Below, piece after piece: positions 26,680 to 64,000 of a stretch of 64,000 bases of DNA. Each line of letters begins with the position of its first letter. Position 1 is the first letter of the stretch. The position numbers and the translations under genes are program-made. The DNA is from Desulfuromonadales bacterium. Its GTDB lineage: Bacteria; Desulfobacterota; Desulfuromonadia; Desulfuromonadales; JAHYIW01. The notes under the pieces were generated by a model. The model did no database searches, was not told the DNA's origin, and saw only the letters and a program-made list of their open reading frames with translations. The stretch is taken from contig JARGFI010000011.1 of NCBI GenBank assembly GCA_029210745.1, positions 72 to 64,071 of the forward strand, in the 5' to 3' direction.

Positions 26680-26703
26680 GCTTCCCCCCCGCAATAGCCA
26701 ACC

Positions 26704-26800
26704 CTTCGCGACAGGATGTCGCTCCCACAACAGCAATACCATCATCGCCGCCCCGCCCCGTCTCTGTGGGAGCGGCTTTCCTTTGTGGGAGCGGCTTCCA
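26704..26800. repeat. REP-like composite repeat, copy A (CTTCGCGACAGGATGTCGCTCCCACA ... TGTGGGAGCGGCTTTCC TTTGTGGGAGCGGCTTCCA)
   Basis: Direct repeat of 29725-29816. My hand alignment gives 4-5 substitutions plus one 5-nt indel. It contains inverted GCTCCCACA / TGTGGGAGC arms. Confidence 0.85.
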
Positions 26801-26892
26801 CAAAACAAAAAAATTTGGGTTCCGGTGTCATTTCCAGCGCCCGTCAGCGCGGCTCCGCCACGCGCTGCCAGCGCCTCCAATCACACCTCCAC

Positions 26893-27783
26893 CTAACCCC
26901 GGTCTTGAATGAGCAGGCGAAAGCCAAGGTAGTTGTAACGGTTGCCCGGAGCGCCCCCGTTCCGGTTCGACGCACGCACGAGCCTCGCTCCGCTGGTCCA
27001 GCTACCACCGCGGTGCACGCGGTCCGAGCCACCTGACGGACCCTGCGGATTCTGCCTGGGACTTTTAGCATAATAGCCGCTGTCGTACCAGTCCTGGCAC
27101 CACTCCCATACATTGCCAAGCATGTCGTGCAAACCAAACGCATTGGCTGCAAAACGTCCCACCGGGGCTGTTACAGCATAACCGTCATCGCAGTTGTGAA
27201 CTGTCCAGTTCGACCATTTTCTTTTCGCACTTTGGTCAGCTACATTCGCATTGCGACAGGCCTGATCCGGACTTTCACCCCACCAGCGTGCCGTTCGGGT
27301 CCCGGCACGGGCCGCATATTCCCACTCCGCCTCGGTCGGCAAACGGAAGCTCTTGCCGGTCTGACGCGACAACCACTTGGCGTACTCGGTCGCATCTTCC
27401 CAGCTGACATAGATTGCTGGCTGATCATCGCCGTTCAGACTATTTCCTCCGTAGTCCTTGCTGGTGTGCCCGGATTTGTATTTGCGATACTGTGCATTGG
27501 TCACCTCAAACTTCCCTATGGAGAATCCGTCAACACACACCTCATGCACCGGCCCCTCGTCACTGCCACGGTCTTTCTCATTTGCCGGGCTGCCCATCTG
27601 AAAACACCCGCCCGGTATCCTGACAAACTCCATCCCGGTGAGTGACTCCGTCCAACTACCGCTGCCGGAACCACCGCTGCGACTCATTTTTTCTCTGCTG
27701 GTGCGAAACTCTTTGATAAACCACGCCTGTGCCGGTTGAGACACGAGCATGAGAGTAAGAAAAAAAAGAAGTATGCGCTGCAT
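26893..27783 (-). CDS. Exported FGE-sulfatase/SUMF1-family domain protein lacking the catalytic cysteine pair
   Basis: Signal peptide MQRILLFFLTLMLVSQPAQA, SGGSGSGS linker, RLPTEAEWEYAARAG, HDMLGNVWEWCQDWY, RVHRGGSW. After GGSW the sequence is TSGARLVRASNR, with no Cys. Confidence 0.85.
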   Translation of the reverse strand: MQRILLFFLTLMLVSQPAQAWFIKEFRTSREKMSRSGGSGSGSWTESLTGMEFVRIPGGCFQMGSPANEKDRGSDEGPVHEVCVDGFSIGKFEVTNAQYRKYKSGHTSKDYGGNSLNGDDQPAIYVSWEDATEYAKWLSRQTGKSFRLPTEAEWEYAARAGTRTARWWGESPDQACRNANVADQSAKRKWSNWTVHNCDDGYAVTAPVGRFAANAFGLHDMLGNVWEWCQDWYDSGYYAKSPRQNPQGPSGGSDRVHRGGSWTSGARLVRASNRNGGAPGNRYNYLGFRLLIQDRG

Positions 27784-59886: not shown

Positions 59887-60267
59887 TTATTCGGCCACTG
59901 ATTTGTAAATTTGGCTGGCAGTCCGGTAAAATCTCTCAACAGCTTCGTTGTCGGGCTTGCCGGAGGGGAGGAACCCGGTGGCAGCCGGATAGCGGCAACC
60001 GAGATAGACGGTGCTTAATTCAATCAAGGTGTCTTCATCGACAGGGATTGTCAGTATTTCTGCAACAATTCCTGCCAACCGGATCAAGTCATGGACCCTG
60101 GGAACAGGCTGACCGGACGCTTCAATCACGCCCTTGAAACATTTTTCAATGCACTGCTGTGAATGAAAGGCGGCAACATTAGCGAGCCCTTCGTCACCAA
60201 GAAGCTTCTCGACGGTCTTCAAATCTTCCAGGGCTCGGGCCAGCCATTCCTGCGCCATCCCATTCAT
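59887..60267 (-). CDS. HEPN domain protein (toxin of a HEPN/MNT pair)
   Basis: WLARALEDL...AAFHSQQCIEKCFKG...PRVHDLIRL is a HEPN R-x(n)-H region. 4-nt overlap with the upstream MNT gene. Confidence 0.8.
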   Translation of the reverse strand: MNGMAQEWLARALEDLKTVEKLLGDEGLANVAAFHSQQCIEKCFKGVIEASGQPVPRVHDLIRLAGIVAEILTIPVDEDTLIELSTVYLGCRYPAATGFLPSGKPDNEAVERFYRTASQIYKSVAE

Positions 60268-60599
60268 TGCAGCGTAATCCCCTTTGCAAGGATTTCCCGG
60301 CTAAAGGAACTCTGTGAACTGAGCAGGGCCTGCCATTCGGGCTTACTGAAAACAAGCACGTCCAGTGCAACCCGGCGATTAATGTCAGCGAGCAACTTTT
60401 TGACGGCAACCGTGTCCTGCATTTTTTCCCGGAAACAGCTTGATGTCGTGTCTTTGTCTAAAACCACAATCAGGTCGATATCGCTGTCAATGCTGGCGGT
60501 GCCGTTGGCATGAGAACCAAACAAAATCACTTTGGCCGGGTTGAGAGTCCGGAGACAGTTCCTGATTTCTTCGATCATGGGCTGCCGATTTACCCCCAT
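60264..60599 (-). CDS. Minimal nucleotidyltransferase (MNT) antitoxin
   Basis: ILFGSHANGTASIDSDIDLIVVL fits G-S-x(n)-D-x-D of the NTase fold. Confidence 0.8.
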   Translation of the reverse strand: MGVNRQPMIEEIRNCLRTLNPAKVILFGSHANGTASIDSDIDLIVVLDKDTTSSCFREKMQDTVAVKKLLADINRRVALDVLVFSKPEWQALLSSQSSFSREILAKGITLQ

Positions 60600-60703
60600 G
60601 TCCTATTCTCCTCAGCGGTGATTATGGTGAGCTGGAGGCTAAAAACCTTGATCAACAATCTGCCATTTTGGTGTGTTTGTCAACTAGCAAAAGAACTCCA
60701 ACT

Positions 60704-60780
60704 TTGTGGGAGCGGCTTCCCAGCCGCGAACAGGGTTCCATCAACCACCAAAGGCTTCGCGGCTGAAAGCCGCTCCCACG
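60704..60780. repeat. REP-like repeat, copy C (inverted pair TTTGTGGGAGCGGCTTCCCAGCCGCGAA ... CTTCGCGGCTGAAAGCCGCTCCCAC)
   Basis: Same family as copies A and B. Lies 100 nt 3' of the caspase-FGE fusion gene. Confidence 0.85.
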
Positions 60781-60880
60781 ACAAAAGCAGGGCTCCATCA
60801 GCGATCCGAAGCTCCGGGGCACATCCGGCATCGTCCGGGCGGCTCCGCCTCGCCCTCCCGTGCCTCCTGACGCCCCTGCG

Positions 60881-63505
60881 CTACCGCTCTGACCTGGCGG
60901 GGAAGGCCAGCCGGAAGCCGAGGTTGAAGACACGGTAGCCGGGCGTGTCCCTGAAACGATTCACCGACCGCACGAGGGCCGGCCCGTCGTTCCAGCTGCC
61001 GCCGCGATTCACGCGGTTGGAGCCCTTGGACTGACCTTGCGGGTTGTTGCGCGGGCTCTTGCCATAATAGACACTATCGTACCGATCCTGGCACCACTCC
61101 CACACATTGCCAGACATATCATAAAGACCCAGACCGTTCGGCTGTTTCTGGGCGACCGGATGCGTCTTGCTGCCGGAGTTACCGGAGTACCAGGCAAGAG
61201 AATCCACATCACTGCCACCGCAGTACTTCTCTATCTTCCCTCCACTGCGGCAGGCATACTCCCACTCTGCCTCGGTCGGCAAACGGAACGTCTTGCCGGT
61301 CTGCCGGTTCAACTTGCGGAGGAATTGCTGCACGTCGTTCCAGCTCACCTGCTCCACCGGGTAGTTGTCGCCGTTCTTAAAGTATGACGGGTTACTTCCC
61401 ATCACCTTGCGCCACTGCCCCTGGGTGACTTCAAATTTACCCAACCGGAAGGAATCAACACAGACCTCGTGCACCAGCTGTTCGGCGGAGTCCCCATCCC
61501 CAAACTGGTTCCCCATCGGGTAACAGCCACCGGGAACGAACACGAACTCCATCCCTCCGGTAAGTTGATTCAGGCGTTCCCGTTCCCGTTCCCGTTCCCG
61601 TTCACGTATCCCCCGCGCAGAAAGAAACTCCCCGTCCACCAGAGTCAGCAACAGTTCATCGGTCACATCGTTGGCCAGCGCCACCTGCACCACCTTCCCC
61701 CCCGGCCTGGCCGTGACCTGCGGGCGCACAAAGCCGTTTTGCAGCTGCCCATACCACTCTTTGGCGTCATCACGCCCCAGGCGAATGGTGCCGTTCATCG
61801 CCACCTGCACGGTGGCAGACTTTGATTTGTTTGCGAGCGTGAAAGGGAAAACACCCCGATCAATATCGTAGCGCCCGACGTGCAGCGCGAGGGATGTCGG
61901 GTCGATGGGGTAGTCTTTGTTGGACAGGGTCGCCAGCTCTTGCCGCAAGGGCGCGGTCTGGGCGCGTGACTCCTGGTCGATGCGCTGCCGCAGGGCGGTC
62001 AGTTCACTTAGGCGCTGCGCTTCGAGTTCTTTGCGCCGCTCACGGTAAAACCCGGTGGCGTTCTTTTTGCGCGCGGCAAACTCGGCGGCGGTTTCAAACA
62101 TATCCTGCACCAGCGGCTTGCCTTTGGCGGCTTTTTCCTGGGCCTTGACCTCGGCCAGCAGCGCAGCGTAGCGCGCAACGATGCGTTTTTCGGCGACGGG
62201 CTGTTCTTTGGCAAAGGCGGCTTCGATGCTGTCGATCTCTTGTGCCAGGCGCCGGATCTCGGCAACAGCGGCTTCAATAGTGGCACTCTGAGTCGCCGGA
62301 GCGCGCTGACGTTTGGCTTCGATTTCGGCTTTGAGCGCGGCCAGGCGCTGTTCTTCTTCGCTGCGCCTGGCGGCCAACTCAGCTTCTTGCTGCTGTACTT
62401 TGGCAAGGTGCTGCTGTTGTTCGCGACGTAGTTGCTCCTGCCGTTGGGCTTCGGCGGCAAGTTGCTCCTGCCGCAGTTTTTCGGCTTTAAGTTTTGCCTC
62501 GGCAATCTGCCGCTGGCGTTCGGCCTCACGGCGGGCCACTTCGTTTTGTGATTTTCTGGCGGCGGCTTCCTGACGGGCCAGTTCGGCCATCTCCGCTTCG
62601 AGTTTGGCAACTTCGGCGGCTACATCGGCAACTTTCTGCCGCACATTTGGCACAAAAACAAAATCACCACTGCCGTACAATGTCCCGAACCCCGGCGTTT
62701 GGTTGTGGTTGCGCGCGCGAGCATCCTGATAGACCTTTTCTTTGAGAATCGTCTGAATCTCGTTCGCGGTCACAAAATCCCCCGCCGCCTCCAGCGCCTC
62801 GATCAGGCGTCCGGTAAAGACCGAGTGCCCGTTTGGACCTCCGTCAAGCGCCTCCTGCCCCTTGCTCCCGGCGGTCAGTACCTGGCGGACGCGCTCTTTG
62901 GTGATCTCTCTCAGGTAGCCCAAATCGCGACTGGTCGTGCCATCGAGACTCCGCTTGGTGGCGAGCAACCCGCTGTAACAGGCATCCATCACATAAAAGA
63001 CGTGTTTGGCCGGAAGGGTTTTGGAGATCGTATCGCGAATCTCGGCCATAGTGATATTACGATAAATCGCATCGACGGAACCGTCGTAAGGGATCAGATA
63101 GCCCAGATCGCCATCAACATTCTTTTGTTGATTGCCATGTCCGGCCCAGAAGACGAAGAGCGCGTCTTCATTGCTCATCTTCTTCGGCAGATCGGTGGTC
63201 AGCAGGCGCATAATGCGCTCTTTGGTCGCCTGCTCATCGGTCAGGGTGATGATTTCATCGAACTGGTAGTTGCGCCGCAACACCTCGGCAACCCCCTGGG
63301 CATCGCGTACGGCGTTGCTGAGCTGCTTGTCGGCAGGAAGGTTTTTATACCGGTCGATACCGACAATGACGGCGTAACTTTTATTGTAGAGCCGAACTTC
63401 GCCACTTTCGCCGGTGGCCGGGTCTTTAGCGACGATGCTGATGCCGCGCGTGGCGGCAAGGGAGAGGGAGAAGGAGCAATCAGGACAAGAAGCAGATTGC
63501 GACAC
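60881..63505 (-). CDS. Fusion protein: peptidase C14 (caspase-like) domain - long coiled coil - unknown middle domain - cysteine-less FGE/SUMF1-like domain
   Basis: N-terminus YAVIVGIDRY...FVFWAGHG...FYVMDACYSG (His/Cys dyad). An E/Q/R/A-rich coiled coil of about 130 aa follows. C-terminus has RLPTEAEWEYACRSG, YDMSGNVWEWCQDRYD, RVNRGGSWNDGPALVRSVNR. The track start is GTG 63505; see the finding on ATG 63507. Confidence 0.85.
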   Translation of the reverse strand: MSQSASCPDCSFSLSLAATRGISIVAKDPATGESGEVRLYNKSYAVIVGIDRYKNLPADKQLSNAVRDAQGVAEVLRRNYQFDEIITLTDEQATKERIMRLLTTDLPKKMSNEDALFVFWAGHGNQQKNVDGDLGYLIPYDGSVDAIYRNITMAEIRDTISKTLPAKHVFYVMDACYSGLLATKRSLDGTTSRDLGYLREITKERVRQVLTAGSKGQEALDGGPNGHSVFTGRLIEALEAAGDFVTANEIQTILKEKVYQDARARNHNQTPGFGTLYGSGDFVFVPNVRQKVADVAAEVAKLEAEMAELARQEAAARKSQNEVARREAERQRQIAEAKLKAEKLRQEQLAAEAQRQEQLRREQQQHLAKVQQQEAELAARRSEEEQRLAALKAEIEAKRQRAPATQSATIEAAVAEIRRLAQEIDSIEAAFAKEQPVAEKRIVARYAALLAEVKAQEKAAKGKPLVQDMFETAAEFAARKKNATGFYRERRKELEAQRLSELTALRQRIDQESRAQTAPLRQELATLSNKDYPIDPTSLALHVGRYDIDRGVFPFTLANKSKSATVQVAMNGTIRLGRDDAKEWYGQLQNGFVRPQVTARPGGKVVQVALANDVTDELLLTLVDGEFLSARGIRERERERERERLNQLTGGMEFVFVPGGCYPMGNQFGDGDSAEQLVHEVCVDSFRLGKFEVTQGQWRKVMGSNPSYFKNGDNYPVEQVSWNDVQQFLRKLNRQTGKTFRLPTEAEWEYACRSGGKIEKYCGGSDVDSLAWYSGNSGSKTHPVAQKQPNGLGLYDMSGNVWEWCQDRYDSVYYGKSPRNNPQGQSKGSNRVNRGGSWNDGPALVRSVNRFRDTPGYRVFNLGFRLAFPARSER
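61575..61606 (-). repeat. In-frame hexanucleotide tandem repeat (CGTTCC on the plus strand) encoding (RE)n
   Basis: CGTTCC x4 plus CGTTCA CG on the plus strand translates on the minus strand as RERERERERER, at the linker just before the FGE-like domain. Confidence 0.9.
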
Positions 63506-63795
63506 ATAAGGGCACCTCCAGACTTAATTGCAATCTGCGAAGTTTAGTCGATTTCCATTTTGTGGGCAAGGAAAAGAACTCCACCCAGATCCACCAGCAC
63601 ATTTTTTATAAGGGGGTTCCGACCCGCCTTGAGCGGTCTGTTCGATTAAAATCTGGTTAATTTTGCCGCCAATTTTGTCTTCATGGCTGGTTTTCTTAAA
63701 AAGTGGCTTCCTGATTTCCTTTCTGTGCCCATTTTAGGCGCAATTGACCCTTTGGGGATAGCCTCTTCCTGCCGTTTATGTCGATATCTGCCTGC

Positions 63796-64000
63796 CTAAG
63801 CCATGAGCGGCGGGCCCCCTCGGGCCAAAGTCAATATGCGCTCTCGACTCTGCAACAGTAACGCATAAGCCGGTTGCCTGGGGCTGATGAGGATTTGCAG
63901 CTGACGCGAACGCTCCCGGACTTGGCCTGCCAGATTGATAAGTCCGAATCTGACCGCCTTGAACCGTCTACGCCTCCAGCTTGCGGGTAAAACCAGTCGT
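63796..64000 (-). CDS. 3' end of an unidentified ORF entering from the right edge (function unknown; mobile-element origin only suspected)
   Basis: Manual translation gives ...RLVLPASWRRRRFKAVRFGLINLAGQVRERSRQLQILISPRQPAYALLLQSRERILTLARGGPPLMA* with no internal stop over 67 codons. I could not recognise a family. Confidence 0.3.
   Translation of the reverse strand, partial: RLVLPASWRRRRFKAVRFGLINLAGQVRERSRQLQILISPRQPAYALLLQSRERILTLARGGPPLMA

Follow-up and report, generated by a model that had tools for sequence, protein, structure and literature searches.

This work concerns a 64,000-nucleotide stretch of DNA (hereafter the window) from a Desulfuromonadales bacterium (GenBank assembly GCA_029210745.1, contig JARGFI010000011.1, positions 72 to 64,071), and in particular an open reading frame (ORF) near one end of it that encodes an 874-residue protein, in which a caspase-like domain of the Peptidase C14 family is fused to a domain of the formylglycine-generating enzyme (FGE)-sulfatase family. 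We consider it probable that this fusion protein is an exported C14 protease with a helical stalk, a β-rich domain and an interchangeable ligand-binding head, the head in this case being a lectin domain that carries the variable region (VR) of a diversity-generating retroelement (DGR), with a target hairpin behind it. Elsewhere in the window a caspase with tetratricopeptide repeats (TPR-caspase) and a stand-alone FGE-like protein are encoded side by side, and are referred to below as the split pair. The coordinates of all features are collected in Table 1. The loci used for comparison are labeled L001, L003 and L006–L018 and homologous proteins P0002 and so on; L001 comes from an independent sibling metagenome-assembled genome (MAG), GCA_032251495.1.

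Both domain assignments of the fusion, which a preliminary description had made from the sequence alone, are confirmed by profile searches. Peptidase_C14 (PF00656) matches residues 43–273 with E 8.9e-19 (68.5 bits, cut-off 21.4) and FGE-sulfatase (PF03781) matches residues 653–867 with E 1.8e-47 (162.6 bits, cut-off 23.3). The catalytic dyad is intact, as had also been noted: His123 lies in WAGHG (63134–63148) and Cys176 in DACYSG (62969–62986), and these motifs align with SGHG and DSCHSG of yeast metacaspase-1 (4F6O). The dyad is kept in the homologues, and by sequence the protein belongs to the C14 protease family. We found approximately 60 full-length homologues (41%–88% identity) of the same architecture in independent assemblies from NCBI, JGI, ENA and Logan; their hosts are Desulfuromonadales, Chlorobium and other Pseudomonadota. 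Because so many independent assemblies carry the same fusion, it is not an assembly chimera, and so neither of the two outcomes that the preliminary description regarded as damaging, failure of the domain calls or a chimeric gene, has come about. No further copies were found in the window using tblastn.

The closest relative of the head in the PDB is TvpA (2Y3C), a DGR variable protein from Treponema denticola, with E 2e-38, compared to about 1e-21 to 1e-27 for true FGEs. Human SUMF1 (1Y1E) and the Streptomyces coelicolor FGE (2Q17) belong to the same Pfam family and align over about 175 residues; however, true FGEs have two catalytic, copper-binding cysteines, and the corresponding segment of the head is the hypervariable VR described below. 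The enzyme sequence GGSYlCHDSYC is replaced by GGSW-NDGPA, and in alignments with 6MUJ, 2Q17 and 2AFT the enzyme segment lCHDSYCnRYR lies opposite the cysteine-free NDGPA-LVR. The head also scores far below every cut-off of the NCBIfam equivalogs PvdO, GldK, EgtB, SenA and OvoA. Because the head has no catalytic cysteine pair and no solved structure is closer to it than TvpA, the sequence identifies the head as a non-enzymatic C-type-lectin domain of the TvpA type, not an FGE-type enzyme. The PGAP name “SUMF1/EgtB/PvdO family nonheme iron enzyme” is thus misleading, both for the fusion and for hundreds of related proteins. The head shares with TvpA the FGE-sulfatase-type C-type-lectin fold, a VR at the extreme C-terminus and export, and we propose that it also shares a DGR of the HRDC type acting on remote targets. 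The differences are that TvpA is a stand-alone lipoprotein of approximately 300 residues, with no protease, stalk or β-domain, and that its cognate template repeat (TR) and reverse transcriptase (RT) are known, whereas none were found for the fusion.

The C-terminus of the fusion carries the sequence signatures of a DGR target. Its last 140 nucleotides (61026–60887), ending 6 nucleotides before the stop codon, align codon for codon with the bona fide TRs of loci L006 (D. carbonis), L008 and L013. Against the D. carbonis TR the identity is 84%; mismatches affect 11 of 25 adenine sites, compared to 9 of 100 sites with another base (Fisher p 1.3e-4); when adenine positions of either reference TR are pooled, the bias has p 9e-6. 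At the protein level the D. carbonis TR reads NNRPENVRSANRNRNTPDYRYDH and the fusion in the window reads NDGPALVRSVNRFRDTPGYRVFN. Among 61 sequences of the fused family, the 11 positions that are Asn in the template are hypervariable, and the residues K, E, Q, M and W make up only 4.5% of their contents, compared to 22.5% in other variable columns (p 1e-34), while the framework RVxRGGSW..R..P..R...LGFRL is almost invariant. Adenine-specific mutagenesis of AAC codons would give NNC codons, which exclude these five residues. In the fusion, C is the third base of 9 of the 11 variable codons, and the remaining two are AAT, a codon also found in the templates; the figures are 10/11 for the L001 fusion and 11/11 (p 2e-6) for the stand-alone FGE-like gene of the split pair. 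An analogous hypervariable segment of this NNC type is present in heads of the DUF1566 type.

A hairpin downstream of the VR is a known requirement for recognition of a DGR target. The stem-loop that begins at the stop codon of the fusion is common to three confirmed DGR targets and is absent after all three TRs. It contains 19 base pairs, nine of which show changes on both sides; 91% of alignment cells are paired, compared to 28%–42% in slid controls, and none of 500 shuffles reached the observed level of covariation. A second type of hairpin follows the confirmed target of L013 and three members of the fused family, namely P0012, a C14-FGE protein of 529 residues and P0007.

Complete DGRs, consisting of target, HRDC gene, RVT_1 gene and TR, adjoin relatives of the TPR-caspase in D. 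carbonis (L006) and L008, and in L008 the FGE gene directly 5′ of the TPR-caspase is itself a DGR target. In the TR/VR pairs the mismatches fall mainly on template adenines (18/21, 12/13 and 10/10). More generally, relatives of the TPR-caspase repeatedly have a stand-alone FGE-like gene or an entire DGR cassette next to them (L006, L008, L015, L018). A DGR also lies directly 3′ of the fusion homologue P0012 (L003, 10833–12043). It is decayed: what remains is two small ORFs, a DGR-type HRDC gene and the initial 34 RT codons, the rest being cut off by an insertion of an HTH/Gp49 toxin–antitoxin pair. Four intact DGRs have HRDC genes 47%–63% identical to this one. TR13, which was recovered from the metagenome that also yielded P0012, was considered as the template of P0012 and rejected (66% identity, no adenine bias). 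The 529-residue C14-FGE protein mentioned above is encoded 2 kb further on in L003 and has the same type of post-VR hairpin as P0012. The RT family itself is very large, with 4775 matches, none of which could be linked to the MAG of the window.

Among 120 relatives of the fusion the C14 domains are 65%–79% identical, and the C-terminal module may be FGE-sulfatase, DUF1566/Lcl, TPR, PDZ plus S41 peptidase, or absent; the identity of the FGE domains is uncoupled from that of the remaining chain. The chassis, comprising caspase, stalk and β-domain, is therefore conserved and the C-terminal head is interchangeable. Heads are also exchanged within a single species. Over 10.7 kb, the window and L001 are 99%–100% identical, except for a block at approximately 61696–60790 where identity falls to 53%–75%. 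This block consists of the FGE-like head and its 3′ flank, and runs from a zone at approximately 61696–61600, which contains a repetitive Arg-Glu linker, to a palindrome resembling repetitive extragenic palindromic (REP) elements. The whole head has been replaced by recombination. The REP-like element, with core TTGTGGGAGCGGCTT, occurs at only three places in the 64 kb, with 8 half-sites compared to 0.25 expected; the other two places are direct repeats of approximately 105 nucleotides, about 90% identical, that bracket the split pair. In the syntenic locus of a related strain (L018), several REP-like copies surround the orthologous split pair.

The region between the caspase and the head had been described as a coiled coil of approximately 130 residues followed by approximately 200 residues that could not be assigned. 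The first part of this holds for residues 286–419, which are rich in Ala (24%), Glu (17%), Gln (14%) and Arg (13%) and are predicted to form a coiled coil; the helical region in fact extends to about residue 529, a length of about 245 residues. As for the second part, no Pfam or NCBIfam model matches residues 286–650 apart from spurious coiled-coil matches to SMC and TolA, but AlphaFold2 resolves the region into a two-helix hairpin, the β-rich domain and the linker. Using an alignment of 31 family sequences, residues 420–650 were modeled with a pLDDT of 93, giving helices at 421–462 and 473–529, a β-rich domain and a terminal helix. The hairpin (421–529) is conserved, with a DxFET..EF motif. 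Modeled alone (527–633), the β-domain has a pLDDT of 87 and shows strands flanking one helix. It has no significant match in the PDB or BFVD using Foldseek, nor in PDB sequences using profile searches; weak matches recur to the OB-fold proteins SSB, Rim1, SilF and LEF-3, and from the model we tentatively describe its topology as OB-like. The domain is rare, with 104 proteins at E ≤ 1e-3 among 1.84 billion cluster representatives searched by profile.

Some proteins with the β-domain lack the caspase. These have the same helical hairpin before it and an FGE-like, Lcl_C/DUF1566 or Sel1 module after it. In P0383 and P0385, the stalk and β-domain stand behind a different N-terminal domain of approximately 170 residues that bears a signal peptide, and the heads are FGE-like or Sel1. 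Because these two proteins carry another N-terminal domain, the stalk module is an adaptor of wider use, not one dedicated to caspases. The linker that follows is encoded by hexamers: a perfect (GAACGG)n run at 61580–61603 encodes RERERE, and its copy number is higher in the window than in L001. Similar ER/EK-repeat linkers are present in other members of the fusion family.

Export is indicated by the N-termini of the homologues. A Sec-type signal peptide was read directly in 15 of them, before a conserved TRG[IL]xVVAKD motif, and a hydrophobicity test found a hydrophobic signal segment in this position in 117 of 120. Because signal peptides precede the motif across the homologues, the family is, on sequence grounds, exported. 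Both proteins of the split pair also have signal peptides. The three exceptions are the protein in the window, its sibling P0002 in L001 and one truncated fragment. We note that upstream of the motif in the window there is a Shine–Dalgarno sequence (GGAGG) 7 nucleotides 5′ of an ATG (63507), in a frame that reads MCRNLLLVLIA. The distance from this ATG to the TRG codons is 65 nucleotides (3n+2), and a single added base restores MCRNLLLVLIAxFSLSLAA|TRG, which has the form of a textbook signal peptide. The called N-terminus of the 874-residue ORF is therefore probably wrong, and a 1-nucleotide deletion in the CT-rich tract may disrupt the signal peptide of this copy, either as a real mutation or as a shared assembly or consensus error. 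No slippery site for a programmed frameshift was evident on inspection of the sequence.

If the mutation is real, it may block export in the strain from which the window comes, and the copy there could have been recently inactivated or mislocalised, with its product either not made from the ATG or cytoplasmic and non-functional. We regard this as possible, with the balance somewhat against it. The offset spacing and the ribosome-binding site in the other frame point in this direction, as does the fact that the DNA (63443–63519) is identical in two MAGs, which apart from the truncated fragment provide the only members of 120 that lack a signal segment. Against this, the 2.6-kb ORF is otherwise undamaged in the two strains, which have exchanged its head cassette; the GTG start of the ORF uses the same Shine–Dalgarno sequence at a spacing of 9 nucleotides; and the offset may be an assembly or consensus error in the CT-rich tract. 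The explanation in any case concerns this copy and not the function of the family. The approximately 500 nucleotides 5′ of the gene (63506–64000; 1–132 in L001) contain no ORF, and a promoter scan found no σ70-like promoter 5′ of the gene and a search of 60500–64000 no Rfam family. The window contig (64,095 nucleotides) and the L001 contig both stop shortly 5′ of the gene, suggesting that assembly broke off at an element that is repeated or varies.

Several observations weigh against an exported protein whose head is diversified by a DGR. As assembled, the copy in the window has no functional signal peptide. That a DGR currently acts on the gene can only be inferred, because the window contains no RT, HRDC gene or TR: tblastn found no RT or HRDC gene, and low-stringency blastn with the 3′ ends of both FGE-like genes found no cognate TR, the sole match in each case being the other gene (71% identity). 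Nor was an intact RT found within 6–8 kb of the five fused-family loci examined. Against the D. carbonis TR, which is heterologous, the VR has nine mismatches at positions other than adenine, so that present DGR activity on the gene is only presumed. In P0003 and P0020, which are distant members, the NNC signature is gone and there is neither type of post-VR hairpin, the hairpin statistics are based on only six sequences, and the swap of the whole head, about 900 bp, represents recombination and not retrohoming. We also searched larger collections for a template. Neither the exact cognate-TR pattern ({X or A}) nor a pattern for the template family inferred below from L001 and L018, which was validated locally, found any match in metagenome contigs, and two cognate-template scans of viral contigs likewise found none, the other contigs of the host MAG lying outside these collections. 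A scan of genome contigs for the TR family gave four matches in unrelated phyla; it did not match the VR of the window itself, so that the collection lacks the window MAG. Exact matches to the 27-nucleotide and 11-nucleotide TR/VR framework are found in MAGs of Saprospiraceae, Planctomycetota and Hydrogenedentota (L009–L012), which suggests that one lineage of DGR and target has spread horizontally.

These findings might be explained by a head that descends from a DGR target but is no longer diversified, the present variation being due to recombinational exchange of whole cassettes between strains or paralogues. In addition to the missing RT and TR, the DGR beside P0012 is decayed, no RT is found near P0007 or P0020, the signature is lost in P0003 and P0020, the head cassette was swapped whole between the window and L001, and the VR of the stand-alone gene differs between strains at 13 third codon positions (see below). 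We nevertheless think this explanation rather unlikely. Several features would soon decay if retrohoming had ceased: an intact target hairpin with compensatory changes, the near-perfect NNC codon signature in both genes of the window, and a pair of VRs from different genes and strains that differ almost exclusively at adenine-derived positions. DGRs of the HRDC type are, moreover, known for remote targets. We therefore continue to favor a head that is, or was until recently, diversified by a DGR located elsewhere in the genome.

A further possibility is that the fusion acts in the cytoplasm as an abortive-infection effector, in which the FGE-sulfatase (FGS) domain senses a phage protein inside the cell and triggers a cell-killing caspase. 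Combinations of caspase and FGS domains do occur in the conflict systems of multicellular bacteria (PMC7159879), the generic caspase model of PADLOC matches the protein, the ORF as called has no signal peptide, and the neighboring genes are of toxin–antitoxin and defence types (HEPN/MNT in the window; CcdAB, JetB and HigBA-like genes at other loci). This is difficult to reconcile with the signal peptides of 117 of 120 family members; no STAND, MoxR-vWA or EAD partner genes are present in any neighborhood examined; and the score against the EACC1-associated caspase model (NF047832) is 68.3 bits, well below the cut-off of 140, with no EACC1 partner genes in any of these neighborhoods. We regard a cytoplasmic effector as improbable, and return to the exported protease.

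The neighborhoods differ in every locus examined, with no conserved operon partner of the fusion gene. They include an integrase, a primase, toxin–antitoxin pairs, Wadjet genes, another C14-WD40 protein and DUF4384, suggesting that genes of the fused family are located in accessory-genome islands. Directly 3′ of the fusion in the window there is a HEPN/MNT (nucleotidyltransferase) toxin–antitoxin pair (59887–60599), followed by unrelated housekeeping genes. Pairs of the MNT/HepT type also adjoin the DGRs of L006 and L013. DUF4384 proteins are encoded after a relative of the TPR-caspase in L007 (6836–7888) and after a gene of the fusion family in L016 (10281–11672), where a C14-WD40 protein of 1037 residues is encoded 5′ of the fusion gene; these DUF4384 and C14-WD40 proteins may be further partners of exported caspases. 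A homologue of the TPR-caspase (P0144) and a homologue of the DGR RT (P0303) are each encoded on a 46,515-nucleotide contig of a Thermodesulfobacteriota MAG, probably the same one, which would be another case of a DGR located together with a TPR-caspase.

Table 1. Coordinates of features in the 64,000-nucleotide window
Feature	Position	Strand	Basis
ORF of 874 aa, GTG start: caspase, helical stalk, β-domain, FGE-like (C-type-lectin-fold) head	60881..63505	-	ORF call, Pfam, homologues
Likely true start: GGAGG 63519–63515, ATG 63507, frame offset from main ORF	63443..63519	-	sequence, homologues
Peptidase C14 (caspase/orthocaspase) domain, residues 43–273	62687..63379	-	Pfam, alignment to 4F6O
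Helical stalk, residues ~286–529: predicted coiled coil and two-helix hairpin	61919..62650	-	composition, AlphaFold model
β-rich domain, ~100 aa, residues ~530–630; OB-like topology tentative	61616..61918	-	AlphaFold, Foldseek, profile searches
(RE)n helical linker, residues 634–644, encoded by (GAACGG)n hexamers	61574..61606	-	sequence, L001 comparison
Head cassette divergent from L001	60790..61696	-	window/L001 alignment
FGE-sulfatase-family domain, residues 653–867, TvpA-like C-type-lectin type	60905..61549	-	Pfam, PDB comparison
DGR variable-region-like segment	60887..61026	-	codon register with L006, L008 and L013 template repeats
Post-VR stem-loop of fusion, from stop codon; putative DGR target-recognition hairpin	60807..60883	-	shared with confirmed targets
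REP-like palindromic element, 3′ boundary of swapped cassette	60700..60790		repeat comparison
Stand-alone exported FGE-like protein, 296 aa; VR 27030–26896, 11/11 variable codons NNC	26893..27783	-	Pfam, codon analysis
Post-VR stem-loop of stand-alone FGE-like gene, near-identical to that after the L001 fusion	26817..26893	-	comparison
TPR-caspase, 608 aa from signal-peptide start MRRCLCF	27799..29625	-	Pfam TPR and C14
REP-like element, first of two direct repeats bracketing the split pair	26690..26810		repeat comparison
REP-like element, second of two direct repeats bracketing the split pair	29710..29830		repeat comparison

The preliminary description had viewed the fusion as a Rosetta-stone paralogue of the split pair, and had taken the presence of both versions as linking the two domains functionally. 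The similarity between the FGE-like domains of the fusion and of the stand-alone protein is real (47%–50% identity; BLASTP E 4e-67). The C14 domains are only 26% identical and, by sequence, belong to different families, so that the split pair has no paralogue in the fusion. The TPR-caspase (as called, the ORF with TPR and C14 domains spans 27799–29766) has its own family of proteins of approximately 610 residues, and none of its top 120 relatives is fused to an FGE domain. Nor are the two FGE-like domains (49% identity) each other's nearest relatives: that of the split pair groups with a DGR target of D. carbonis, and that of the fusion shows 63% identity to a different DGR target of the stand-alone kind. 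The comparison thus does not bear out a recent duplication of the pair. What survives is the association of caspase and FGE-like modules, and not a link through fusion of the split operon.

A Rosetta-stone fusion would further imply that a protease and a formylglycine-generating or oxidative enzyme act in sequence on a common substrate. Apart from the presence of both Pfam domains in fused and split form within one window, and the similarity of the FGE-like domains, this idea has a precedent in a 2012 survey, which speculated on combined proteolysis and formylglycine modification (PMC3501461). The absence of the catalytic cysteines, with TvpA as best solved relative, the membership of the C14 domains in different families and the fact that the FGE-like domains are not each other's nearest relatives already largely refute it; in addition, the C-terminus is hypervariable and NNC-restricted, and on the same chassis the FGE-like domain is replaced by heads that are not enzymes (DUF1566, TPR, Sel1). 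We consider it very improbable.

The two versions are connected in a different way, through their VRs. A related strain has a syntenic locus, L018, whose flanks are 94%–97% identical to the window. The stand-alone FGE-like genes of the two strains are 96%–100% identical on both sides of the VR and 71%–78% identical across exactly 27030–26896. Because 13 of the 34 differences are at third codon positions, these two VRs either derive from different templates or were swapped as whole units. The VR of the L018 stand-alone gene is, moreover, 83% identical to that of the L001 fusion; the differences fall 12/9/2 at codon positions 1/2/3, and every framework codon is common to the two, including synonymous choices. 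Within a 108-nucleotide stretch in register with the reference templates there are 21 differences, at 19 of 34 template-adenine positions and 2 of 74 others (Fisher p 4e-10), while the remainder of the two domains is only about 45% identical. These two VRs thus appear from their sequences to have been written from one type of template, which by inference encodes GGSNRVKRGGSWNNEPRNVRSASRNRNNPGNRYNNLGFRLVTQD, and within the species group this shared template type constitutes a real functional link between the fusion gene and the stand-alone one that neighbors the TPR-caspase. The two VRs of the window itself have different frameworks (65% identity), so that the evidence stems from L001 and L018. 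It is conceivable, if on balance doubtful, that the fusion and the two-gene version are two forms of one extracytoplasmic system for adaptive recognition and proteolysis, in which a single remote HRDC-type DGR keeps rewriting the two binding surfaces and whole heads are shuffled between strains at REP-like and repeat-linker boundaries.

For the fusion itself we envisage the following mechanism. An HRDC-type DGR elsewhere in the genome would rewrite, or would recently have rewritten, the binding surface of the head. The variable head would select a periplasmic or extracellular ligand, for example a phage, a competitor cell or a polymer surface; the stalk may oligomerise the protein; and the caspase domain could then cleave the target held by the head, or else a host substrate close by. 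The two-gene version, with both proteins exported, may act similarly in trans.

Parts of this arrangement have been described before. Asplund-Samuelsson et al. reported the caspase plus FGE-sulfatase architecture, exactly that of the fusion at the Pfam level, in 33 of 671 prokaryotic metacaspases (2012; PMC3501461), but they read the FGE domain as an enzyme and did not note VRs, the stalk, the β-domain or head swapping. Orthocaspase N-termini have been reported on cyanobacterial DGR variable proteins (2020; PMC7517822), as has a CHAT/TIR-bearing DGR target in Thiohalocapsa, together with periplasmic and cytoplasmic targets (PMC10907252). Like the fusion, these proteins combine an N-terminal caspase-type peptidase with a DGR-diversified C-terminal C-type lectin (CLec) domain; they differ in coming from cyanobacteria and a gammaproteobacterium and in being mostly cytoplasmic proteins of signaling or conflict, whereas the fusion comes from Desulfuromonadales and has no DGR in cis. 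The chassis of signal peptide, coiled-coil stalk and β-domain is unreported for them. TvpA-like FGS domains have been described as DGR-diversified sensor or neutralising modules that occur alongside caspases (PMC7159879); in the MoxR-vWA and STAND systems analyzed by Kaur et al. (2020, PMC7159879) they are often diversified, always C-terminal and combined with caspases or other effectors. Those proteins are found in multi-gene systems centered on an NTPase, whereas the fusion has no fused or adjacent vWA, MoxR, STAND or EAD component and belongs to an exported family.

The DGR literature is consistent with remote, exported targets. HRDC-type DGRs have the Treponema/TvpA architecture and form a lineage with remote targets (PMC5758913), and cellular DGR targets usually have signal peptides (PMC8144416); caspase targets are not mentioned in either of these two large surveys. 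DUF1566 is the second lectin class of DGR targets (PMC5758913), to which the surface-exposed Legionella target LdtA (DUF1566/CLec2 class) belongs. Relatives of the fusion on the same chassis have DUF1566/Lcl heads with the hypervariable C-terminus noted above; LdtA has no protease or stalk, and the gene in the window has an FGE-type head. Both caspase-FGE fusions and caspase-bearing DGR targets are therefore already published. As far as the searchable literature shows, the exported chassis with stalk and β-domain, its ability to take lectin heads of either class, the exchange of heads between strains and the template type shared by fused and stand-alone genes have not been described.

What is known of DGR variable proteins concerns mostly passive binders, for instance the tail fibres of phages and lipoproteins of the cell surface, and earlier caspase-bearing DGR targets are known from annotation only, in cyanobacteria and one purple sulfur bacterium. 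The present analysis delimits a compact exported chassis that takes either of the classical DGR lectin heads, or TPR, Sel1 or PDZ-S41 modules. If the fusion is active, a hypervariable domain would choose the target of its protease, and the protein could serve as an engineerable scaffold combining binder and protease. This would bear on defence against phages and competitors and on the biology of bacterial caspase homologues. Should the fused and two-gene versions indeed be forms of one system, these bacteria would possess a repertoire of secreted caspase-like proteases with reprogrammable targets, a bacterial analogue of an antibody-guided protease.

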